Part shown: positions 1 through 9,914 of the stretch, piece by piece
Numbering within the stretch: the first letter of the stretch is position 1
Layout: every line of letters starts with the position of its first letter
Source: Candidatus Nomurabacteria bacterium
Lineage (GTDB): Bacteria; Patescibacteriota; Minisyncoccia; Phycocordibacterales; UBA9973
NCBI GenBank assembly: GCA_052035195.1
Contig: JBPOHU010000001.1
Span: 104,031 to 168,030 of the forward strand
Direction: 5' to 3'
Length of the DNA: 64,000 bases
The notes under the pieces: generated by a model
Told to the model about the DNA's origin: nothing
What the model saw: only the letters and a program-made list of their open reading frames with translations
Database searches by the model: none
Position numbers and translations under genes: made by a program

Positions 1-347
1 CCTTCTTTCTTTTGGATATCTTTCTCTACTTTTGATTGTGTGGCGATAGCTGCATGATCTGTACCAGGAAGCCATAGTGTCCGAAATCCTTGCATTCGTT
101 TATATCGAATAAGTATATCTTCGACAGTTAGCATTAGTGCATGGCCCATGTGAAGCACGCCAGTTACGTTTGGCGGTGGCATGATGATGGTATAAGGAGT
201 AGCAGTAGGTGCGGTATGCCCGTCTGCAATCATTTTATCAGGATTGAAATATCCAGACTTTTCCCAAAGCTCATAGGCAACCTTTTCTTCAAAGGCAGGG
301 TCGTACGGTTTTAACAGCTTTTCAGGCACATTTTGAGTACTTTGCAT
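1..347 (-). CDS. valS: valyl-tRNA synthetase, N-terminal part (gene continues upstream of window)
   Basis: Reverse translation gives MQSTQNV...[48 protein letters not shown]; HMGH and [10 protein letters not shown] are ValRS class I signatures. ATG at 345-347 (minus). Confidence 0.8.
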
Positions 348-435
348 GCAAAAATAATAACATTTTTATACACTTTTGGGGAGATATATTGACTTTTAAT
401 ATAAAAATGTTTAATTTAATATAAAAAATAATTAA

Positions 436-690
436 ATGAAATTACTTGAAAGCTTAAAGAATTCGGTGTCCGTAGAATTGACAGCTAATGACCCAAAAGA
501 GATAGTTGCTGCATGGAGAGTTATGGAACTGGCATTAAATGCTACAAAAGAAAGAAGTGAGATAGAAGAAGCTCTGGTATATACGAAAAGTCAAGAGTTT
601 ATCAAGTGTGTAGCATTACCTAATAATTACAGCACTTTCATACAAGATCACTTAGATTACTTGTTCCGGAAAAAGGGTTTACAAACTTAA
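436..690 (+). CDS. hypothetical small protein
   Basis: 84-aa ORF preceded by an AT-rich TTGACT promoter-like region; no recognisable domain. Confidence 0.3.
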   Translation: MKLLESLKNSVSVELTANDPKEIVAAWRVMELALNATKERSEIEEALVYTKSQEFIKCVALPNNYSTFIQDHLDYLFRKKGLQT

Positions 691-1875
691 ATTTCCATCA
701 GCGCGCAATTCATCCGGATTGCGTGTTTTTATTTCTCCAGAGAATATTTGGAGCATTCCAGCCAAACCTATCATGACGGCGTTGTCAGTAGCTAGCCAAG
801 GCTCAGGGAAAAGAAGAGTAATATTTGGAAATTCTTTTTCAACATTCTTTTTTAATTCTTCTCTAAGGTAAGTATTTCCGGCAACACCTCCTCCAACTAC
901 TACAGTTTGAGCATTGTGTTCTCTTATTGCATTTATAGTCTTTTTTACTAGTACTTCTATCGCAGCATTTTCAAACTCACAAGCTAAAGAACCTTTTTCT
1001 TCTTCTGTTAATTCTCGAGTGTTTTGATCTGTTATGTCACGAGTCGCATAGAGTACTGCCGTCTTGATACCAGAGAAAGAGAAATCATAATCTCCACTAT
1101 GAAGCATTGGTCTAGGCAGATCAAAAAGCCTTTCTTTGTTCAAATCTCTGTATTCTTTGGCCAATCGAGATATTGCAGGGCCTCCTGGGTATGGTAAACC
1201 AAGTACTCGAGCAACTTTGTCGAAAGCTTCTCCTACAGCATCGTCGCGAGTCTGGCCTATCTTTTGATACTTTCCAAAGTTTTCAGAAAGTACGAGTTCG
1301 GTATGTCCACCAGAAACCAAAAGAGAAAGTATAGGAAGTTCTGGTTTTTCTACTTGATAAACTTTTGAGCTAGATGAGCTTTCAACTTGCGAAATCATAG
1401 CTGTCACTACGTGTCCTTCCATGTGATTGATAGGAATAACCGGTATACCCCAAACTTTTGCTAATGCTCTAGCTGTATTTACTCCCACCCACAAAGCCGG
1501 TTCAAGACCAGGACCAACAGTGACAGCAATATAGTCTATGTCTGGCTTTTGATAATAAGTTAGAAAAGGTTCAAGATTTTCTTTGAGCTGAGATTCTTTT
1601 TCATTTAGAAAAGAAAGTGCTTCTGGCGTTATATGGAGAGGAATTTCTGGTACGTCTAGTAAATAAGCTTCATCGAGCGCTTGGGTGAGCATAGGCACCA
1701 TTTTTTCAGCGTGAGCTCTTTTTGCCAAAGCAGGGAAGACTCCGCCGTATTGTGCATGTATCTCTATTTGAGAAGACAAAGCATTACCAATAAGGGTAAA
1801 GGTGTTTAATCCTGTTTGCTCTAGTATCGCAATACCTGTCTCGTCGCAACTTGTCTCTATAGCTAGTATTTTCAT
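679..1875 (-). CDS. tsaD: tRNA N6-adenosine threonylcarbamoyltransferase TsaD (Kae1/Gcp family)
   Basis: MKILAIETSCDETGIAIL N-terminus, HMEGH metal motif, GGVAGN; typical TsaD. Confidence 0.85.
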   Translation of the reverse strand: MKILAIETSCDETGIAILEQTGLNTFTLIGNALSSQIEIHAQYGGVFPALAKRAHAEKMVPMLTQALDEAYLLDVPEIPLHITPEALSFLNEKESQLKENLEPFLTYYQKPDIDYIAVTVGPGLEPALWVGVNTARALAKVWGIPVIPINHMEGHVVTAMISQVESSSSSKVYQVEKPELPILSLLVSGGHTELVLSENFGKYQKIGQTRDDAVGEAFDKVARVLGLPYPGGPAISRLAKEYRDLNKERLFDLPRPMLHSGDYDFSFSGIKTAVLYATRDITDQNTRELTEEEKGSLACEFENAAIEVLVKKTINAIREHNAQTVVVGGGVAGNTYLREELKKNVEKEFPNITLLFPEPWLATDNAVMIGLAGMLQIFSGEIKTRNPDELRADGNLSL

Positions 1876-1916
1876 AAATTTTTACCCCGCTAGAAACAAG
1901 GTTTCTGTGGGGCGCA

Positions 1917-2327
1917 TTGCCACACTATAGCAAAAATATTGATTTTTTTCAAAGCTATGGTAATGTAAGAAAAAAAGTAAAAATGCATAAATATCTTGCA
2001 CAACTATTAGTATCTTTACCTAGCGATATACCAAATTTACCTTTTTACAATCTCCATAAAAACATAGACGGTGATAGTATTGGCAGTACTTATTCTTCAG
2101 ACATTGCAAATTCTTTATTTGAAGATTTTGATACTATGTGGAGTATCAGTGATCTTCAGAAACTCATCAATAAGTTTGATTTTAAGAAATTTCGATCATG
2201 TGTGTCAATTAAAATCTACGATCGAGAGAAAGATATGATCGAGACTCAATATGGAGTAAATGGAGTTGGGGACGCAGCGGTTAACTTTTTGATTTTTTTA
2301 ATAAAAAGAAAAATAGGGCTTAACTAA
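1917..2327 (+). CDS. hypothetical protein
   Basis: 136-aa ORF, no recognisable motif. Confidence 0.3.
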   Translation: MPHYSKNIDFFQSYGNVRKKVKMHKYLAQLLVSLPSDIPNLPFYNLHKNIDGDSIGSTYSSDIANSLFEDFDTMWSISDLQKLINKFDFKKFRSCVSIKIYDREKDMIETQYGVNGVGDAAVNFLIFLIKRKIGLN

Positions 2328-2345
2328 AAAATAGTTAGGCTTTTT

Positions 2346-2795
2346 TTATTGCTCTATATTTTTATGATTTTCGTGAGCCTTAGTGTGTAGGATTTCTAGT
2401 TTTTTTGAAATAAGGATAAGCTCGTCTTTTATATCAGCAATAGCTGTCACTTCATTTTTAAGATCTTCTTCTGTTCTTTCACTAAGTTTCTTTTCGCCAC
2501 GAAGACCAGAGAGGATAAGTTCATTACCAATAAAGCTAGAAGTGAATGCTCTAGTGAAGTACAAAATAATAAAACCAATTAAAAATGATAGTGGTCCGTC
2601 CCACCAAAGGCCAGATGGCAAACTCAAAGAAGAAGATAGAGATAGGCTACTAATCATTTCATGAAGGTAGTCTGCGCTGTGCCATACTCCACGCCAAAAT
2701 AAGACTATACCTATTCCAACTATTAGAGCGTATGTTTTTGGGTGATGACTAAGCTTTTCTTGGATTTTATGTTTTGTTTTTTTGAAGATACTCAT
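2346..2795 (-). CDS. hypothetical membrane protein
   Basis: 149-aa ORF with hydrophobic segments (IVGIGIVLFWRGVW, LIGFIILYF). Confidence 0.35.
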   Translation of the reverse strand: MSIFKKTKHKIQEKLSHHPKTYALIVGIGIVLFWRGVWHSADYLHEMISSLSLSSSLSLPSGLWWDGPLSFLIGFIILYFTRAFTSSFIGNELILSGLRGEKKLSERTEEDLKNEVTAIADIKDELILISKKLEILHTKAHENHKNIEQ

Positions 2796-2821
2796 GTTTC
2801 TATTTTACACTTTTTATTTTG

Positions 2822-2895
2822 TGCGCGATACAGGGATCGAACCTGTCACCTCAGCAATGTCAATGCTGCGCTCTAACCATATGAGCTAACCGCGC
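2822..2895 (-). tRNA. tRNA-Val (anticodon GAC)
   Basis: Reverse complement folds as a cloverleaf: acceptor GCGCGGT/ATCGCGC, D-stem GCTC/GAGC, anticodon stem CAGCA/TGCTG with loop TTGACAT, T-arm ACAGG-TTCGATC-CCTGT. No encoded CCA. Confidence 0.8.
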
Positions 2896-2983
2896 GAGTT
2901 GGTCAAAAAATTATAACAGGAATATCAAATATTTGCCAATAATAATATTTTGTGGTATAAAAAACTAAACTAAAACCATTATT

Positions 2984-3472
2984 ATGGAACTGAAAACCAA
3001 TGTTCTTTGCGATCTGCGGGGCGCAGATATAGCACTTTTTCCTCTGTTTGATAAAAACGGGATTGAATATAAAAAGTTTATTTCGAAAGAAGTCTCAGAG
3101 TGGGACATTATCGGAGTGGCTAGCCTGCCGCCATTTTTTTTGAACCGTTTAAATTTTTATGATGAAAACGGCAAAACTTATTTTAAGGACAAGGGAAAAG
3201 AAGTACCCGTTGTGATTTCTTCTATTAATTATGAACAACTTGAAAAAACCACCGTTTCCGAATTTTGGAACCAGTGCATGATGGTCGCTCATAAGGGGGT
3301 TCGGCCTCGTATTTGGATTCTGGCCCCAGATGATGTATGTAAGTACATCATTAGTCAATACATAGGAGAGGAGACTGCTGGCTTCTATCTCCATAATGAA
3401 GACACGGAGATCAACCTTTACTATGCTATCGAAAAAATTGGTAGCACAATAAAGGCCCATAAGATGTTTTAA
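2984..3472 (+). CDS. hypothetical protein
   Basis: 162-aa ORF between two tRNA genes; no recognisable domain; followed by a strong terminator. Confidence 0.4.
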   Translation: MELKTNVLCDLRGADIALFPLFDKNGIEYKKFISKEVSEWDIIGVASLPPFFLNRLNFYDENGKTYFKDKGKEVPVVISSINYEQLEKTTVSEFWNQCMMVAHKGVRPRIWILAPDDVCKYIISQYIGEETAGFYLHNEDTEINLYYAIEKIGSTIKAHKMF

Positions 3473-3482
3473 AATAATCAGC

Positions 3483-3508
3483 CACCCCAAGTAAGGGGTG
3501 GTTTTTTG
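3483..3508 (+). terminator. rho-independent terminator
   Basis: CCACCCC-aagtaa-GGGGTGG followed by TTTTTTG. Confidence 0.7.
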
Positions 3509-3559
3509 ATTTTTTAGGAACTCATGTTAGAATGTTTTCGCTCATAAGGCACAACTTAT

Positions 3560-3631
3560 GGCCCTATCGTCTATCGGTTAGGACGAAAGCTTTTCAAGCT
3601 TTAAAGCGGGGTTCGACTCCCCGTAGGGTCA
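3560..3631 (+). tRNA. tRNA-Glu (anticodon TTC)
   Basis: Cloverleaf: acceptor GGCCCTA/TAGGGTC, D-stem GTCT/GGAC, anticodon stem AAAGC/GCTTT with loop TTTTCAA, T-arm CGGGG-TTCGACT-CCCCG, discriminator A. Confidence 0.8.
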
Positions 3632-3643
3632 CAACGCAAAAAG

Positions 3644-3667
3644 AAAAACGCCTTCCAGGGCGTTTTT
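3644..3667. terminator. bidirectional intrinsic terminator nested in a longer inverted repeat
   Basis: AAAAACGCC-ttccag-GGCGTTTTT; the outer arms GGGTCACAACGC (3626-3637) and GCGTTGTGACCC (3669-3680) are also inverted. Confidence 0.6.
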
Positions 3668-3828
3668 CGCGTTGTGACCCTAAGTAAAACAACTGCTTGT
3701 TTTACGGCGGGGAGGCGAACAGCGGAGCTATATTTTTCTAGCAAGAAAAATAGGCGAGCTGGTGCCCAGACAAAATTTTTTGACTGAAAAAGTTTTAATC
3801 GAGGGAGACAAATGAAATGATCCCCGTA

Positions 3829-3855
3829 GGGTCACGAATTTGGGTAATAAAAAAG
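3829..3855 (+). repeat. repeat module M1 copy 1 (GGGTCACGAATTTGGGTAATAAAAAAG), preceded by duplicated tRNA-Glu 3' end
   Basis: Near-identical copies at 5160-5186 and 5799-5825. At this copy the 5' side extends to TCCCCGTAGGGTCAC (3821-3835), identical to tRNA-Glu 3' end 3618-3632. Confidence 0.8.
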
Positions 3856-3880
3856 CCTACAATGTTTTCATCATAGGCTT
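3853..3880 (-). terminator. intrinsic terminator of cassette gene A (minus strand)
   Basis: Minus-strand read: AAGCCTA-tgatgaaaacattg-TAGGCTT followed by TTTTTTATT. Confidence 0.6.
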
Positions 3881-3898
3881 TAAGTTCAGTAAAATACA

Positions 3899-4666
3899 TT
3901 ATGCAGGTATTGAGAACAGTTCCAGGGATTTTTTAACATAATCTCTGGCTGTTTCAATATTAAGGCTATCGTATTCTTTGTTACGCAGCCGTCCTTCTGC
4001 ATCAATGCTTAGGTCCGGGAAATCTTTTACCAACGGCTCGATCAGGTCAAGCGTTGTCGGGCTCAGTCCACCAGCTACACCCAGGCCGAAGTCATTCGGT
4101 TTTACACTTAATGCTTCCAGGTAGCTTCTGGCAATGTCAGGGTTAAATGGCTGTCCTGTTCCACCGCTCGGATCGAGCAGAACGTAGTCAATAAGACCAG
4201 CATATTCGCTGTGTACCTTGTCGGCCAACTTCTTTGGTGAATGTGATATTTCTTCAAAGGCACCACCGCCAATCTGCAGAACAATACTTTTGTCAGGATG
4301 CAGTTCTTTGTAATCCTCCAGTACTCTTACTGAAGGCCATGCGATGTTCAGCTGGAACCCGTTGAAGTGATTACCGGCGAGTTCAGTTACCAACAAAAGT
4401 TGTGGTAGCAGGCTTTCAGGTTCTTTGGTGTTGAAGTGCACCAGGTTCAGGCAGTCTTCAATGTTAGGAAAAATGTTTACCACTTCTCCGATTGCCGGAT
4501 AACGGCCGGGCCATTTGTTCGGAATTCCTTGCAGACTTTTACTGCTTGCGAGAACTCCCACCATCAACATCCTGTCTGCCTTTTTAAGGTCAGTACTGTC
4601 CAGGACGCCAAAGACTTCGGTAGGGGACATAAACCCCGTGATGCCAACATAAGGTTTCTTTTTCAT
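3899..4666 (-). CDS. phosphoribosylanthranilate isomerase (TrpF)-like TIM-barrel protein; cassette gene A
   Basis: MKKKPYVGITGF..., LLDPSGGTGQPFNPD and GLGVAGGLSPTTL match TrpF motifs (KICGIT / LLDxxGGTGxxFDW / LAGGL). Visibly higher GC than its neighbours. The ORF-finder's TTG start at 4723 probably just reads through the conserved leader. Confidence 0.5.
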   Translation of the reverse strand: MKKKPYVGITGFMSPTEVFGVLDSTDLKKADRMLMVGVLASSKSLQGIPNKWPGRYPAIGEVVNIFPNIEDCLNLVHFNTKEPESLLPQLLLVTELAGNHFNGFQLNIAWPSVRVLEDYKELHPDKSIVLQIGGGAFEEISHSPKKLADKVHSEYAGLIDYVLLDPSGGTGQPFNPDIARSYLEALSVKPNDFGLGVAGGLSPTTLDLIEPLVKDFPDLSIDAEGRLRNKEYDSLNIETARDYVKKSLELFSIPA

Positions 4667-4689
4667 TGTTAAATTTTTCTTTACATTAA

Positions 4690-4737
4690 CATTTCCATTA
4701 GATTCGTCAATATTAGGTTCCAAAACTCACTATAAAG
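4690..4737 (-). promoter_or_regulatory. conserved promoter/leader module M2, copy A (minus strand: TTGACG-N16-TGnTAATGT)
   Basis: Minus-strand read: ...GTGAGTTTTGGAACCTAATATTGACGAATCTAATGGAAATGTTAATGTAAAG..., near-identical to copies at 5752-5799 and 6443-6467, always directly upstream of a start codon. Confidence 0.6.
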
Positions 4738-4749
4738 TCTTGTGAACAA

Positions 4750-4785
4750 GAAAGCCGCCCATTTTATGGACGGCTACAACTTCAA
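4750..4785 (-). terminator. intrinsic terminator of the 79-aa gene (minus)
   Basis: Minus-strand read: GCCGTCCA-taaaa-TGGGCGGC followed by TTTCTTGTT. Confidence 0.5.
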
Positions 4786-4793
4786 AATCTTTT

Positions 4794-5033
4794 TCACAAT
4801 TTAACTGAAAGCAAAACCTTTGCAACCTCAACAACTTCTTCCAGATTTGAATATAAACCGTTTGCTATGCTTTCTACAAAATCTGTATAAAGATAGCATT
4901 CCGGTTCATTATCTCGTCTTTCGTTCATTGCACGTGATAGTCTACTAAGAGATTTTATGCTTTCAATTTCTTTAACTACTGCTTCTTTGGTTAACTTTTC
5001 CATGATTATTTGTTTTGTTTTCGCAACTAACAA
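4794..5033 (-). CDS. small hypothetical protein (79 aa; 69 aa if the ATG at 5003 is used)
   Basis: ORF with SD AAGGAAAC 9 nt upstream of the TTG at 5033; own canonical promoter and own terminator; sits between cassette units. Confidence 0.4.
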   Translation of the reverse strand: MLVAKTKQIIMEKLTKEAVVKEIESIKSLSRLSRAMNERRDNEPECYLYTDFVESIANGLYSNLEEVVEVAKVLLSVKL

Positions 5034-5065
5034 ATCAAAAAAGTTTCCTTAAAAGCCTTTAATTA

Positions 5066-5094
5066 ATATTAGCATATTATTAACACTTTGTCAA
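5066..5094 (-). promoter_or_regulatory. sigma70-type promoter TTGACA-N17-TAATAT (minus strand)
   Basis: Minus-strand read: TTGACAAAGTGTTAATAATATGCTAATAT. Confidence 0.55.
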
Positions 5095-5143
5095 TACTAT
5101 GTTAAACTGCATAAATAAATTAATACTTTTAACTATTAGTTTT

Positions 5144-5186
5144 CAAAACTCACTATAAAGGGTCACAAATTTGGGTAATAAAAAAG
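5144..5186 (+). repeat. M2 3' part fused to M1 copy 2 (CAAAACTCACTATAAAGGGTCACAAATTTGGGTAATAAAAAAG)
   Basis: Direct sequence identity with 5781-5825 and partial identity with 3829-3855 / 4721-4737. Confidence 0.8.
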
Positions 5187-5203
5187 AACTGAATAATCAG
5201 TCC
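5186..5203 (-). terminator. intrinsic terminator of cassette gene B (minus)
   Basis: Minus-strand read: GGACTGA-ttat-TCAGTTC followed by TTTTTTATT (the T-tract is the M1 A-run). Confidence 0.55.
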
Positions 5204-5229
5204 TTTAAAAAAATACTTTAGATTTAAAT

Positions 5230-5727
5230 CTATCTCTTTCCAACAAGGAATCTTGCTGTTGGGGATAAGGATATATTTTTATTTACCTCAATAAAACCAA
5301 GGTTGTAAAGACAACCGTTTCCATCTGGTTGTAAATAAACTATTCCCGGTATACCGTCACCATCGGATACATCATCCATTAGTGACACAATAGCTGTTCC
5401 ACGATCAAAATTAGTAGTTCTTAAGTGGTTAATGTAGTTAATAACATAAGTAACACTAATTTTTGAGTAACCCATCTGGAGACTTTTTTCTATTACGTCT
5501 TCCATTGTAAAAGTGTCACCGAGACCGAGATCGTTTTTATCAATAACACCTATTTCGCTCAATGGAGCAATAGGATTCTCGAGGGGTACATCTACCAATC
5601 TGCTGACGCTACCACCAGTCATTAGGTCTCCATAAATATCGTCTACATTTCTACTTTTTAATATTTTTTCTGCCTCTTTTACACTGAGGAATTGAGAAAA
5701 CCCATCTGTTCTAATTGTATAGTTCAT
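5230..5727 (-). CDS. hypothetical protein, cassette gene B
   Basis: 165-aa ORF, ATG directly downstream of M2 copy B with SD AAGGAAAA; AT-rich; no recognisable domain. Confidence 0.5.
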   Translation of the reverse strand: MNYTIRTDGFSQFLSVKEAEKILKSRNVDDIYGDLMTGGSVSRLVDVPLENPIAPLSEIGVIDKNDLGLGDTFTMEDVIEKSLQMGYSKISVTYVINYINHLRTTNFDRGTAIVSLMDDVSDGDGIPGIVYLQPDGNGCLYNLGFIEVNKNISLSPTARFLVGKR

Positions 5728-5751
5728 GTTAATAAATTTTCCTTACCTTAT

Positions 5752-5799
5752 CATTTCCACGATATTCGTCAATATAGGTTTCAAAAACTCACTACAAAG
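5752..5799 (-). promoter_or_regulatory. conserved promoter/leader module M2, copy B
   Basis: Minus-strand read: GTGAGTTTTTGAAACCTATATTGACGAATATCGTGGAAATGATAAGGTAAGGAAAATTTATTAAC-ATG; -35 TTGACG, 16-nt spacer, extended -10 TGATAAGGT. Confidence 0.6.
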
Positions 5800-5825
5800 G
5801 GTCACAAATTTGGGTAATAAAAAAG
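5799..5825 (+). repeat. repeat module M1 copy 3
   Basis: GGGTCACAAATTTGGGTAATAAAAAAG identical to 5160-5186. Confidence 0.8.
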
Positions 5826-5864
5826 CCCACATAATTGCGGACTTGTATAGATTTTTTTACAGAG

Positions 5865-6404
5865 CTATTTAGCTAAAAGCGCTTTCATTACCAATAAATG
5901 TGCGGCATCCTTTAATAACCCTGGAGCATTCAATATCATACCTTTCGGTTTAATATGACCAAAGTGTGTACTAGGAACTCTTCCCAATGAATTTATTCCG
6001 TTTAAAGGATCAAGAAAAAGGTTTTTTTCTTTAAGTAGGCTGACGCCTCTTCCCCAAAGTATTTCAGCCGTATGACTGAAATCCCATCTTGTTACAACAA
6101 CTGAGTAACGTCTACCATTGCGTTTACAATGTTTCCTTTGAATTGTAATAACAACATCAGATTCTACTTCATTTTTTGCTACTTCAAAAATAGGCGTATC
6201 AAATTTATGTATTCTTTCGATAGTATCTAAGCGTTCCTGTTTGGCAAGTTGCAATAAATTGCAATTTGGACCGATACAGGGTTCTTTTACAAATACTTTC
6301 AATTTGATATTTTTAAGCTCAAGATTAGGAATAGATATTCCGGCAATTTCTGCACAAGTGTACAACAAGGTATCTGGGTTTGGGGATAATATTAATGCAT
6401 CCAT
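5865..6404 (-). CDS. hypothetical protein, cassette gene C (contains an Rx4H motif RWDFSH)
   Basis: ORF with in-frame ATG at 6404 (MDALILSPNP...). The finder's longer version starts at 6485 inside the M2 leader and would overlap the HxlR stop. RWDFSH resembles a HEPN Rx4-6H motif, but this is tentative. Confidence 0.45.
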   Translation of the reverse strand: MDALILSPNPDTLLYTCAEIAGISIPNLELKNIKLKVFVKEPCIGPNCNLLQLAKQERLDTIERIHKFDTPIFEVAKNEVESDVVITIQRKHCKRNGRRYSVVVTRWDFSHTAEILWGRGVSLLKEKNLFLDPLNGINSLGRVPSTHFGHIKPKGMILNAPGLLKDAAHLLVMKALLAK

Positions 6405-6442
6405 ATAGACTGTTTTTGTGTAAAGATTTTTTACCACACTAC

Positions 6443-6467
6443 CATTTCCATGATATTCGTCAATATA
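6443..6467 (-). promoter_or_regulatory. conserved promoter/leader module M2, copy C (partial, abuts HxlR stop)
   Basis: Minus-strand read: TTATATTGACGAATATCATGGAAATGGTAGTGTGG; same -35 / conserved spacer GGAAATG / extended -10 TGGTAGTGT. Confidence 0.55.
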
Positions 6468-6469
6468 AC

Positions 6470-6757
6470 TTATTTCTTCCCCCAAGATTCCATAGCATCG
6501 ATAACTTTTTTAAGTTTTTTACCATTTGGAGTTAGGGCGTAGTGAAGCTCATCTTTTTTATAGATTATTTTCTCAGCTTCTAGTCTTTTGAGTTTTAGAG
6601 TTAGAGTTCTAGTGCTTATGCCTGCGAGAGATCGCTCTAGTTCACAAAACCTCATAGGATTATTTAATAAGTCACGAATAATAAGCATAGTCCATGTATC
6701 AGATAGGAGAGTCGCTGTTTTACTAACAGCACAAGATGTATGAGTAGAAGGCTTCAT
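6470..6757 (-). CDS. HxlR-family winged-helix transcriptional regulator
   Basis: CAVSKTATLLSDTWTMLIIRDLLNNPMRFCELERSLAGISTRTLTLKLKRLEAEKII matches the HxlR family pattern; divergent from a YceI-like gene. Confidence 0.65.
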   Translation of the reverse strand: MKPSTHTSCAVSKTATLLSDTWTMLIIRDLLNNPMRFCELERSLAGISTRTLTLKLKRLEAEKIIYKKDELHYALTPNGKKLKKVIDAMESWGKK

Positions 6758-7489: not shown

Positions 7490-8632
7490 ATGGCTCAACA
7501 AAAATTGTTCGTTGATTCAAATAAAAAACTCAAAAAGGTTCTTCCAAAAGAACATGCTTATGATGAAGAGTTCAAAAGCTTAGATTTTATAATTGTTCCG
7601 TATGCATTTTTATTAGGGATTAAGAAAAACCATAAATTACAGCCTATTATTGAAAATAAAATACTCTGTGAACTTTTTTCTAAAAAAGGATCAGGGGATG
7701 TTGATTTAATCAATTTATTTATCAAAAAAGAGGCGCTTTGGTTTAAAAAAGATCCATCAAAAATGTCTAAGGCAAACAATCTTTTATCAGAAGAAGAATT
7801 AAGACGTATCTTTATTTCTGGAGCACTTGAAATAAAATTTCGTCATAAAAGCATTTCTTCATTAAGAAGGTTGTTTAGGAAAAAGCTTCCTAATTCAAAA
7901 CCACCATTGGTTTTTGGTAAAATTGCTCGTTATATCAACAACGGTGCTAGTCACGAATTTTGGTATGAGGAAACAGGAGAAGAAATAGCTCAATTGTTTC
8001 CAGAATTTAGCCCTGAGCTCATTAAGGCTCTTTTGGCTATTACTTCTATAAGAGCAACGCTTCCTTCGAACGTTACAAAGTCTTTTAAGGCTTTGGATCA
8101 GTTCCATCGAACTGAACAGTTTGAGGTTCCTTTTGGTAAAAAGGGAGACAAGAAGATGATTAAAAGTAATTTTAAGGGTTTTCTTGATGCCCAGCTTCAT
8201 CATTTGAATTTACTTAAAAATGGGCAGTCTCTAACTGATCCAAAAAACCTACTAAAAAACGGGCGAAAGATTAAAATGTTTGCCAGTGCAATGGGGTCAG
8301 TTGAAGATGCTATTGTTGACGATGTTTGGATTACCAGAGCTTTTGGTTGCGACAGAAAAAGAGTTTTTGAAAGTCGTATAACTAGTCAGTCTCCCTCTAA
8401 GGCAATCTATGATGCAACAGAATGGTATTTACAAACTATTTCTAAGCTTGTAGATAAAAAACCAAGAGGTGTATGCGCGATGATTTGGGCGGGTATACGG
8501 CAAGAAACAAACAAAGAAACAGCCCGTTATACTGACCCAATAAAAAATCGACTAAACCATGGACTTTTTTCTGAGCAGTATGGAAACCTGAAACCCTCAA
8601 AAAAAGGAGGGATTGAGTTTGAATTATTTTAA
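7490..8632 (+). CDS. hypothetical protein (380 aa)
   Basis: Long ORF with its own terminator (AAAACCCTTT-aaacaa-AGGGTTTTTTT at ~8630-8660); no motif recognised. Confidence 0.4.
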   Translation: MAQQKLFVDSNKKLKKVLPKEHAYDEEFKSLDFIIVPYAFLLGIKKNHKLQPIIENKILCELFSKKGSGDVDLINLFIKKEALWFKKDPSKMSKANNLLSEEELRRIFISGALEIKFRHKSISSLRRLFRKKLPNSKPPLVFGKIARYINNGASHEFWYEETGEEIAQLFPEFSPELIKALLAITSIRATLPSNVTKSFKALDQFHRTEQFEVPFGKKGDKKMIKSNFKGFLDAQLHHLNLLKNGQSLTDPKNLLKNGRKIKMFASAMGSVEDAIVDDVWITRAFGCDRKRVFESRITSQSPSKAIYDATEWYLQTISKLVDKKPRGVCAMIWAGIRQETNKETARYTDPIKNRLNHGLFSEQYGNLKPSKKGGIEFELF

Positions 8633-8729
8633 AACCCTTTAAACAAAGGGTTTTTTTATATACCTTTTTATCTTTTGGCAATCTTACGGATAGCAATTAT
8701 TTCTATATAATTTAAGCAAATATACACTA

Positions 8730-9914
8730 ATGAGAAATAGTACTTTAAAATCTGATTCAGAAGTGTCTAATCAAAATTTTCAAGAACAAAGTCATGTTTG
8801 GTCAAATGCCTGGCTGCCTCTTGATTTAGTTATTAAGTTTCCTCAAGTACGCAAAACCTTTGAAAAGGAATCATTGCAAGAGTTAGCTGATGATATAGCA
8901 AAAAATGGGCTTATACAGCCACCGATGATTGCTAAGTTATCAAAAGAAAATTTTGCAAAATATGTTGAAGTTTTTGAAAAAATATCAAAAACAAAACTTT
9001 TGCAATCAAGCTATCAATTTGAGGAAACTAATACTGGTGAAGTTTGGTATCATGTTTTAGTTGCCGGAGAACGTCGCTACAGAGCACATATGATTCTTTG
9101 GGAAACTGGTTGTACTGACTGCATAAATTCTGCAAGAGATAATAAAAAAACTCTTGAGAAAGGAGAATGCTTTTCAAAGCACTTTCCTCAGCAGTTAATG
9201 GAATCAAGGGTTGGTATTAATATTGACCCAGAAAAAGCAAAAAGTATTCAGTTTCGTGAAAATCATCATGTCAGACCTCCAGCCCATGAAGAAGCTTATG
9301 GTTACCGGGATTATTATGATCACCTGAAAACACTTAATCAAAAACTCACCCTTAAAGAATTTGCTGAAAGGGTAGGAGTTTCAGTTGAAAAAGTTCGGAG
9401 AGCCATATGGTTCTGTGAACTTCCAGACAGATTACGCCAAACAGTGGAAGACAAAATGATTTCGTACTCAAATGCCTTGGAGTTAAAACGTATCCTTCAA
9501 ATAGAAAGCATTGGTTTTAAAGAAAGAATTAAGATTATTAACAACGAAGTAGACTTCCTTCTTATTCATCAAAAGATAAAGAATGAAGATTACAAAAAGA
9601 GAGTCGATAATCTTATTTCTAGTTTTCAAATGCTAACATTGTTCGATACTAAAGAATTTGAAATGGGTAAAAAAGAGAAGCGCAAAGTAGTAAACGAAAA
9701 CCTACTTAAGGGTATTATCCTAATGAGGGGGTATATGACCAAGCTAAACGCTATTATTCCTATGGGAATTATTGGTAAAGGTAGGGTGTATTCAGGTATT
9801 TCTCCAACTAACCAGGTTAAGTTCATCGTTGAAGAGCTCCAAAAAATTATTCCCGGGTTTAAACCTACGAAGCAACAACTGGAACAATTCAAAAAAATTG
9901 ATTTAGACATTTAA
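8730..9914 (+). CDS. ParB/Srx-like nuclease-domain protein with HTH and a Cys-rich insert
   Basis: VLVAGERRYRAHMIL (the ParB GERRxRA box) and KLTLKEFAERVGVSVEKVRRAIWF (ParB-type HTH). Extra CTDC...C cluster between them. Terminator AAAACCCCTCA-ttcg-TGAGGGGTTTTT follows. Confidence 0.55.
   Translation: MRNSTLKSDSEVSNQNFQEQSHVWSNAWLPLDLVIKFPQVRKTFEKESLQELADDIAKNGLIQPPMIAKLSKENFAKYVEVFEKISKTKLLQSSYQFEETNTGEVWYHVLVAGERRYRAHMILWETGCTDCINSARDNKKTLEKGECFSKHFPQQLMESRVGINIDPEKAKSIQFRENHHVRPPAHEEAYGYRDYYDHLKTLNQKLTLKEFAERVGVSVEKVRRAIWFCELPDRLRQTVEDKMISYSNALELKRILQIESIGFKERIKIINNEVDFLLIHQKIKNEDYKKRVDNLISSFQMLTLFDTKEFEMGKKEKRKVVNENLLKGIILMRGYMTKLNAIIPMGIIGKGRVYSGISPTNQVKFIVEELQKIIPGFKPTKQQLEQFKKIDLDI

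Follow-up and report, generated by a model that had tools for sequence, protein, structure and literature searches.

The 203 nt that follow the tRNA-Glu(UUC) gene in a chromosomal segment of a Candidatus Nomurabacteria bacterium are one copy of a family of short, folded units without coding capacity, widespread and apparently new to the literature, which lie directly 3' of tRNA and tmRNA genes of Patescibacteria and whose flanking elements match the 3' end of whichever tRNA is adjacent. The stems of the family core covary, its folding favours the tRNA-sense strand, and the differences between strains at the locus are bounded exactly by the two sense copies of the tRNA end. As to what the unit is, a non-autonomous insertion module, bounded by tRNA-end repeats and entering by recombination within the tRNA-end segment (X), is an explanation for which we consider the chances to be evenly balanced. 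The window, i.e., the whole stretch of DNA analysed, comprises 64,000 nt (GenBank assembly GCA_052035195.1, contig JBPOHU010000001.1, positions 104,031-168,030 of the forward strand) and is ordinary chromosomal DNA of a Patescibacteria (CPR) bacterium, encoding TsaD, FtsZ, FtsA, MreB, AlaRS, RpoA, DnaK, and the like. The features discussed are collected in Table 1, and loci compared with the window are designated by L numbers.

Anatomy of the unit behind tRNA-Glu

Table 1. Features of the tRNA-Glu locus, in window coordinates.
Feature	Position	Strand	Basis
Sigma-70-like promoter of tRNA-Glu, TTGATT-16-TAGAAT	3506-3533		
tRNA-Glu(UUC) gene	3560-3632	+	ARAGORN; Rfam tRNA, 58.5 bits
X1, final 15 nt of tRNA-Glu, left copy of the direct repeat	3618-3632	+	Repeat search
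Whole unit, 203 nt: hairpin, X', core, X2	3633-3835	+	Strain alignment (window, L001, L004, L007); architecture of relatives
Intrinsic-terminator hairpin, A run before and T run after	3644-3667	.	Terminator scan (minus); T5 (plus)
X', antisense copy of the tRNA-Glu 3' end, in two halves	3674-3713	+	Sequence, fold, relatives
Folded core	3707-3813	+	Match to covariance model R1
X2, second sense copy of the tRNA-Glu 3' end	3821-3835	+	Repeat search, fold
Array arm, GAATTTGGGTAATAAAAAAGCC...	3836-3861	+	Recurs after AGGGTCAC at 5159 and 5798

The repeated segment corresponds to the 3' strand of the T-stem, the 3' strand of the acceptor stem, the discriminator A and C74 of the tRNA. With up to two mismatches allowed, the 15-mer TCCCCGTAGGGTCAC has exactly two matches in the 64 kb, namely X1 and X2, which flank the insert as direct repeats in the manner of tRNA/tmRNA integrative elements; shuffled sequence contains it 0.01 times on average, and two or more matches occurred in 0 of 100 shuffles. 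The duplication of the tRNA-Glu end, already reported by the first-pass annotation, was thus confirmed for both copies, the distance given there as 189 nt being in fact 188 nt (3633-3820), for a start-to-start spacing of 203 nt.

The hairpin next to the tRNA consists of AAAAACGCC (3644-3652), a TTCCAG loop and GGCGTTTTT (3659-3667), i.e., 9-10 pairs followed by T5, and reads alike on the minus strand; from its sequence, it is the predicted terminator of tRNA-Glu. Its description as a bidirectional terminator holds for the minus strand, the only one scored by the terminator scan (3668-3643), and is left on the plus strand with the T5 that follows the unscored stem. As previously claimed, the hairpin is nested within a longer palindrome (3624-3682), the arms of which form a perfect inverted repeat of 14 nt, TAGGGTCACAACGC (3624-3637) against GCGTTGTGACCCTA (3669-3682), returned by the repeat search with 19-nt arms at 95%. 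This nesting exists because X1, the terminator and X' together make one long hairpin. Within X', GTGACCCTA (3674-3682) pairs with TAGGGTCAC and CGGGGA (3708-3713) with TCCCCG, the two halves being separated by a small hairpin at 3685-3704 with CTGC in its loop; X' is split in the same way in six other loci. X2 pairs with X' and closes the unit, and also serves as the tRNA-derived half of the junction with the gene array downstream.

The first element of the core, H1, reads CAGC-GGA-GC, a hairpin with an AGCA loop, then GC-GA-GCTG (3720-3762), and a second hairpin follows at about 3769-3800. The fold of 3560-3840 is far more stable than those of shuffled sequences (z = -9.5); in its minimum-energy form X1 pairs with X' and the 5' part of the tRNA with X2, a modelled arrangement that would endow the unit with a tRNA-like or minihelix pairing potential. 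There is no ORF of its own inside the 203-nt unit.

A family of units behind tRNA and tmRNA genes

Scanning one genome per species with the final 23 nt of the tRNA returned at least 119 tRNA-Glu loci of Patescibacteria. Besides the window sequence, represented by L006, 18 loci exhibit a second copy of the tRNA-Glu end 87-265 nt downstream and share the order of the window, i.e., hairpin, X', core and second copy. In the family as a whole, the modules are 110-260 nt long, non-coding, located directly 3' of tRNA or tmRNA genes in the orientation of the gene, and composed of (i) a terminator-type hairpin, (ii) X', the reverse complement of the 3' end of the adjacent gene, which extends back to within the T loop and in many cases is split by a small hairpin, (iii) a conserved core of two hairpins, and (iv) X2, a sense copy of the final 13-21 nt of that gene. 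In the tRNA-Glu relatives, X' extends from GTGACCCTA... to ...GGGGAGTCGAA, thereby reaching the T loop, and the hairpin that splits it often has a CTGC loop. At least two core types recur, namely S1 (a long stem, GTACTG, and a hairpin with a TGTAA loop) and S2 (TCGAAAGSCGGAGC-hairpin-GCGAGGCGGGGTCG-hairpin-CGTGACC), a variant of S2 being present in the window and in one further locus (L023); tandem units of unlike types were found in three loci. Both types also occur behind tRNA-Val and tRNA-Ser, where X' and X2 match those tRNAs in the same loci, and an exact 10-nt repeat accompanies about 16-21% of the tRNA-Glu, tRNA-Val and tRNA-Ser genes in the loci.

A pattern scan of metagenomes for the S2 core gave at least 120 contigs, 116 of them with usable upstream sequence. 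Among the matches listed, 99 of the 116 lie at most 330 nt behind a co-oriented gene, which is a tRNA in 94 cases (16 amino-acid identities) and a tmRNA in 5. Among the same matches, 90 tRNA/tmRNA units had enough downstream sequence for X2 to be compared: the exact match reaches at least 13 nt in 46 of them and falls below 8 nt in 39, the commonest lengths being 19 nt, from C56 to C74, in 24 units and 21 nt in 8. The distance from gene to unit is fixed (median 61 nt) and every unit is co-oriented with its gene, none in the opposite orientation being found among the units examined. Behind different tRNAs, cores are 92-98% identical while the X segments are 0-74% identical, and the hairpin, too, differs between near-identical cores; X2 can be decayed with the core intact, as in two of the loci. 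The measurement of X'/X2 mismatch classes captured 18 units, X' being often split.

S2 units appear to follow tmRNA (ssrA) genes in six of the L-numbered loci, where X' and X2 correspond to the 3' end of the tmRNA (...TTCGATTCCC...TCTCCACA); ARAGORN confirmed five tmRNA genes overall. The tRNA-Val(GAC) gene of the window (2821-2895, minus strand) is without a unit, a gene beginning 26 nt past its 3' end; downstream of tRNA-Val, a direct repeat of the 3' end was seen in seven related loci.

The membership of the window segment in this family was established with a covariance model, R1, built from 53 metagenome units. In the window, R1 has a single match, which covers the core of the unit (27.4 bits, E 1.6e-4), and in the genome loci it matches 36 sites, 35 of them distinct since L007 repeats the window unit; a co-oriented tRNA precedes 26 of the 35. 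With 27 bits and an X2 identity of 15 nt, the window copy is a weak and divergent member. Homologous units are present behind tRNA-Glu in many distant Patescibacteria devoid of the gene array found here, which is, in form, the finding that the first-pass annotation had named as fatal to its own reading of the segment as a recombination junction. Its view of the palindromes as recombinase sites around a crossover core is not supported, the segment being a complete family member with a conserved fold.

Compensatory changes affect 17 of 36 predicted pairs in the S1 alignment. In the S2 alignment (53 sequences), 90.4% of the cells are paired versus 68.6% in shuffles, and the covariation score is 0.50 versus 0.15, a value reached by 0 of 500 shuffles; slid controls are paired at 28-48%. 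One S2 pair, GCC/GGC, swaps cleanly to GGC/GCC, all 9 pairs of the second hairpin covary, and G-U pairs are frequent in the stems. All 108 of the 108 units have an inner core that is more stable on the tRNA-sense strand, also when each strand is compared with its own shuffles (z -3.8 on the sense strand versus -2.7, p = 1.5e-10). The conserved purine loops (GGA/GA, CGAG/CGAG) and tetraloops (AGCA/AGTA) are found on this strand.

With Rfam 15, tRNA was the only family to reach its gathering threshold in the window and 12 unit-bearing loci; between 3500 and 3900, matches with E values of up to 10 included nothing credible beyond tRNA. When features were compared by eye, none of tmRNA, SRP RNA, hammerhead, group I intron, retron, or IS200/IS605 and IS91 ends fit the unit, and Rfam, which holds models for several of these candidates, matched none of them over the same stretch. 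A literature search found no description of such units, and the literature on tRNA introns in Patescibacteria yielded only introns at position 35/36.

Strain variation, serine recombinases and the adjacent array

Contigs of the same species were found by exact look-up of the flanking proteins. L006 and L007 carry the segment of the window. In L001, the flanks of which are 99-100% identical to those of the window, 134 nt of other sequence stand between the tRNA end and the second copy and the direct repeat is 19 nt versus 15 nt in the window; the array junction is retained and the unit is another one. In L004, with the same flank, the gene of a 564-aa large serine recombinase begins directly after GGGTCAC, antisense into the tRNA. 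In L007, foreign DNA with a Peptidase_M78 gene is joined at ...GAGCTCAC/AACGC (...CTCAC/AACGC), the left edge of the segment. Three occupants are thus found in one species, namely the window unit, a different unit and a serine-recombinase element, and the site is hypervariable because strains of the same species (L001, L004, L007) differ between the tRNA-end copies. L093 has no unit versus the related L113, which has one. The att-like reading of the first-pass annotation is supported as far as the direct duplication of the tRNA 3' end is concerned, and the position is a real recombination hot spot; the 188-nt segment itself is not the array junction.

Other sequences were observed at this position. 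In five loci, another conserved type, ...GAAACTT...GGGCGCGCCGAAGGCGCGC..., occupies the first ~70 nt after tRNA-Glu and is not a unit; one of them (L052) has a co-oriented serine recombinase gene ~170 nt downstream, and a further locus (L070) has such a gene likewise but with other downstream sequence than the L052 type. In L034, a MAG labelled Pseudobdellovibrionaceae, the first ~130 nt past the tRNA end hold short tandem repeats of ATTCAACTCTCACACT..., two of which, 56 nt apart, end in a partial tRNA-Glu 3' end (CTCCCCGTAGGRTCAC), a pattern unlike the units. Further along the window, between YceI and thioredoxin reductase (7490-9914), a pair of genes of 380 aa (weak DUF7178 match) and 394 aa (ParB-like) is absent from that place in L001 and thus represents a second strain-variable insertion.

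No recombinase, tyrosine recombinases included, was found among the 40 window ORFs scanned, and no integrase lies inside the 203-nt unit. The 1,207 ORFs neighbouring the units were clustered; the clusters annotated (seven of the twelve largest plus one smaller) reflect housekeeping synteny except for one large-serine-recombinase family, and among them there is no integron integrase or tyrosine recombinase and no integrase, transposase or reverse transcriptase linked to the units. This recombinase family recurs near tRNA-Glu in 18 loci. In 10 of the 18, and in L004, which lies outside the cluster, the last codons of the recombinase are the antisense of the tRNA end, read in either of two frames (...VTLRGVEPRF or ...CDPTGSR), so that the tail of the protein must change on integration or excision. 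Such recombinase genes were seen in L004 (3467-5161) and in nine further loci, L020 and L113 included.

In L020, a recombinase-bearing element stands between the tRNA end and the unit, and L007 has the same junction, with no recombinase gene within the available fragment; in L113, the element sits behind the unit. As at an attB of large serine recombinases, elements are joined at the tRNA end (L004, L020) or at X2 (L113), and X2 is a usable second attB because the recombinase gene of L113 reads through it. The serine recombinase inserts beside the units and is their neighbour, not their engine. In L110, a 4-kb insert (95-4130 of that locus), flanked by AGGGTCACACA, separates the tRNA-Glu end from an S2 unit and encodes a 1,028-aa protein with a caspase domain and a DEAD helicase, which matches the Hachiman HamB models of PADLOC; this suggests defence cargo at a hot spot.

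To the right of X2, the minus-strand array (3836-6490) comprises gene A (3899-4666), a 79-aa ORF (4794-5033), gene B (5230-5727), and gene C (5865-6404), with junctions at 3821-3861, 4672-4737, 5095-5190, 5734-5830, and 6425-6490; Pfam, NCBIfam and PADLOC gave no match for the proteins A, B and C or the small ORF. Each array gene is preceded by a repeated block of ~100 nt holding a post-terminator motif (TTATTACCCAAATTYGTGACCCT), a promoter-like box and a ribosome-binding site. On the plus strand, the junction reads ...TTCAAAACTCACTAYAA-AGGGTCAC-AAATTTGGGTAATAAAAAAG (5140-5190 and 5779-5830), and on the minus strand a promoter-like TTGACG-N16-TAnnGT stands before each gene; the array arm is followed by a minus-strand terminator at 3852-3881, that of cassette gene A. 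GGGTCAC is indeed shared with the array junction motif, as noted earlier, with plus-strand copies at 5160 and 5799, and is contained in a 34-nt repeat family at 3828, 5159, and 5798. X2 with GAATTTGGGTAATAAAAAAG (3821-3861) amounts to a tRNA end fused to an array arm, and this right edge alone is an attL-type junction of the array. The earlier assignment of an attL to the array therefore stands for 3821-3861 and falls for 3633-3820, a full family member with its own R1 match. L001 is without the array genes B and C, the breakpoints being in a repeated GTCAATA box. The junction motif of the array is present in 0 of 253 loci outside this species and has 0 matches in the metagenome scan.

Insertion module or structured RNA

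An insertion module is the simplest reading of 3633-3835 because of the three alleles, the tandem arrays of unlike units, the patchy occupancy, the near-identical cores behind different tRNAs and the flanking direct repeats. The module would enter via recombination inside X, from the T loop to the 3' end, a circle bearing X being integrated Campbell-fashion; the incoming DNA would give the tRNA a new 3' end and a terminator, and the displaced old 3' end would become X2, the empty site being tRNA-X directly joined to GAATTTGGG. X' and X of the sense strand, be it ssDNA or a read-through transcript, would pair into a double-stranded copy of the target beside the conserved core, which may be recognised by an enzyme encoded elsewhere. 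Against such a module, no enzyme is linked to the units in the neighbour clusters annotated, the sole recurrent mobile gene nearby being that of the large serine recombinase, and no excised circle or clean empty-site allele was seen in the contigs of this species compared, where the strain difference could be allelic exchange by homologous recombination. Both X' and X2 would need rewriting each time the core moves to another tRNA, and to our knowledge classical attP sites bear no antisense copy of their target, which was also counted against insertion. The window copy is weak and divergent, and the units were not found in mobile-element collections: BLAST returned no match in phage and plasmid collections, and scans of IMG/VR for X'...GGGGAG, the tRNA-end 19-mer and the S2 core gave chance coding matches, phage tRNAs or nothing. 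A functional RNA would account at least equally well for the purine-rich GGA/GA internal loops, the very high conservation of the core and the strand bias.

The main rival is accordingly a cis-encoded structured RNA that is not mobile and would be expressed by read-through from the tRNA promoter, an explanation that we hold to be possible, if somewhat unlikely. X' and X2 might then form a mimic of the acceptor/T-stem, trimmed by RNase P, RNase Z and the CCA-adding enzyme, or X' might act as an antisense guide or sensor of its own tRNA 3' end with the core binding a protein, and patchiness would stem from gains, losses and gene conversion among the many copies of an RNA family. Besides the uniform folding bias, the strong covariation with its G-U pairs, and the conserved purine loops and tetraloops, this reading accounts for the co-orientation, the fixed distance and the core identity across tRNA contexts; moreover, the point at which X' is interrupted by the small hairpin is exactly that at which, in a real tRNA, the D and anticodon arms depart from the acceptor/T stack, and the minimum-energy fold pairs the 5' part of the tRNA with X2 and X1 with X'. 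It is, however, at odds with the canonical terminator between the tRNA and X', whose T run directly adjoins X' and leaves no space for a promoter, with three alleles at one site in one species, with tandem arrays of unlike units, with the minority of tRNA genes carrying a unit and the decay of X2 beside an intact core, and with the lack of an Rfam family. The insertion and RNA readings are compatible, as a mobile element may act via a structured transcript. That the segment is instead the attL of the cassette array or a decayed, once integrase-borne island, the repeat being the crossover core and the palindromes the recombinase-binding sites, is improbable and for 3633-3820 largely refuted. 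Such a reading draws on the fusion of X2 to the array arm, which recurs after AGGGTCAC at 5159 and 5798, on the elements integrated exactly after GGGTCAC in L004, L007, L020 and L110, and on the recombinase gene reading through X2 in L113; yet the segment belongs, at full length, to a family found without the array, independent decay would not yield the same ordered parts with covarying stems, the inverted-repeat arms stand 31 nt apart around a terminator rather than at the spacing of core sites with a 6-8-bp overlap, and L001 combines the same array junction with a different unit. It holds for 3821-3861 only. An ordinary tRNA terminator with a repeat born of chance or slippage would explain why 3644-3667 is a good terminator, and is refuted by the rarity of the repeat (0.01 expected in the window), the R1 match, the model having been built from unrelated contigs, and the z-score of the fold; the inclusion of tRNA sequence in the 14-nt perfect inverted repeat also speaks against it, and we give it hardly any credence.

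Integrative elements at tRNA/tmRNA 3' ends include genomic islands, prophages and ICEs, and a T-loop sublocation class of tRNA-gene integration was reportedly described by K. Williams in 2002. Like them, the units form inserts flanked by direct repeats of the 3' segment of the gene, from T loop to 3' end, also target tmRNA, accrete in tandem on the gene-proximal side, restore the 3' end and supply a terminator; unlike them, they measure 110-260 bp, contain neither integrase nor any other gene, bear an antisense copy of the target, use one core for at least 16 tRNA identities, and have covarying stems with strand-specific folding. With integron attC sites and CALIN, and with the attP(+) hairpin of CTX phage, they share inverted site copies that can fold with a variable structured spacer into a duplex target, strand-specific folding, gene-free arrays and the order predicted for the integrated form, namely site, cargo, inverted copy, spacer and site. 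In the units, a sense-strand bias and a hairpin interrupting X' were observed. The units have, however, no RYYYAAC/GTTRRRY or dif-like core and no R''/R' core sites, no link to IntI or Xer was seen, and their stem (GTGACCCTA ... TAGGGTCAC) equals the tRNA end and changes with the target.

MITEs and REPINs resemble the units in being short and non-coding, with terminal inverted repeats (here X'/X2), long hairpins and, presumably, mobilisation in trans. They differ in that the inverted repeats of the units vary by copy, being the end of the neighbouring gene, in their strict location behind tRNA and tmRNA genes, and in that no RAYT or transposase was seen; whereas a MITE or REPIN would be present across a genome in numerous, nearly identical copies that share their terminal inverted repeats, the 64 kb hold one copy. 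Comparison with tRNA mimics, e.g., the tRNA-like domain of tmRNA, viral tRNA-like structures, mascRNA and YrlA, points to a possible mimic of the acceptor/T-stack with an arm at the 7/49 junction, and, as in tRNA-mimic RNAs and archaeal cis-acting guides by or within tRNA genes, an antisense element stands beside purine-rich (GA) loops of protein-binding type. Unlike tRNA mimics, the units have no Rfam match and no promoter of their own, their 5' and 3' strands are perfectly complementary, and each copy mimics a different tRNA. The attB of large serine recombinases is comparable in that elements insert exactly after GGGTCAC, at X1 (L020, and the L007 junction) or at X2 (L113), with recombinase genes reading antisense into the tRNA end; what differs is that the unit does not include the recombinase and that no 15-21-nt duplication arises from serine recombination.

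A bolder proposal, which we advance tentatively and think rather unlikely, is that the units represent a new class of elements whose target is set by nucleic-acid matching and not by a dedicated protein: a core of ~60-100 nt, as RNA or ssDNA, would be recognised by one trans-acting enzyme, the X'/X pair programming insertion behind any tRNA or tmRNA gene, or else the units would be a bacterial RNA family in which each tRNA has its own cis-encoded guide or mimic for the segment between its T loop and 3' end. Little DNA can be spared in the tiny genomes of Patescibacteria, and yet a considerable minority of the tRNA and tmRNA genes in them bear units. If mobile, the units would be among the smallest site-specific insertions known, with a single core matched to more than 16 genes, and would point to an unrecognised recombination or guide mechanism; if RNAs, they would form a large unannotated family built on mimicry or antisense of tRNA ends. 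Either way, X2 offers serine-recombinase elements a second landing site, as in L113, and the spot seeds variable islands, including ones of defence type as in L110. The duplicated tRNA ends may also break assemblies and mislead island finders that read partial tRNA copies as borders. In six loci, the contigs end 1-26 nt past tRNA-Glu, which suggests that assemblies often break there from repeats or strain mixtures.
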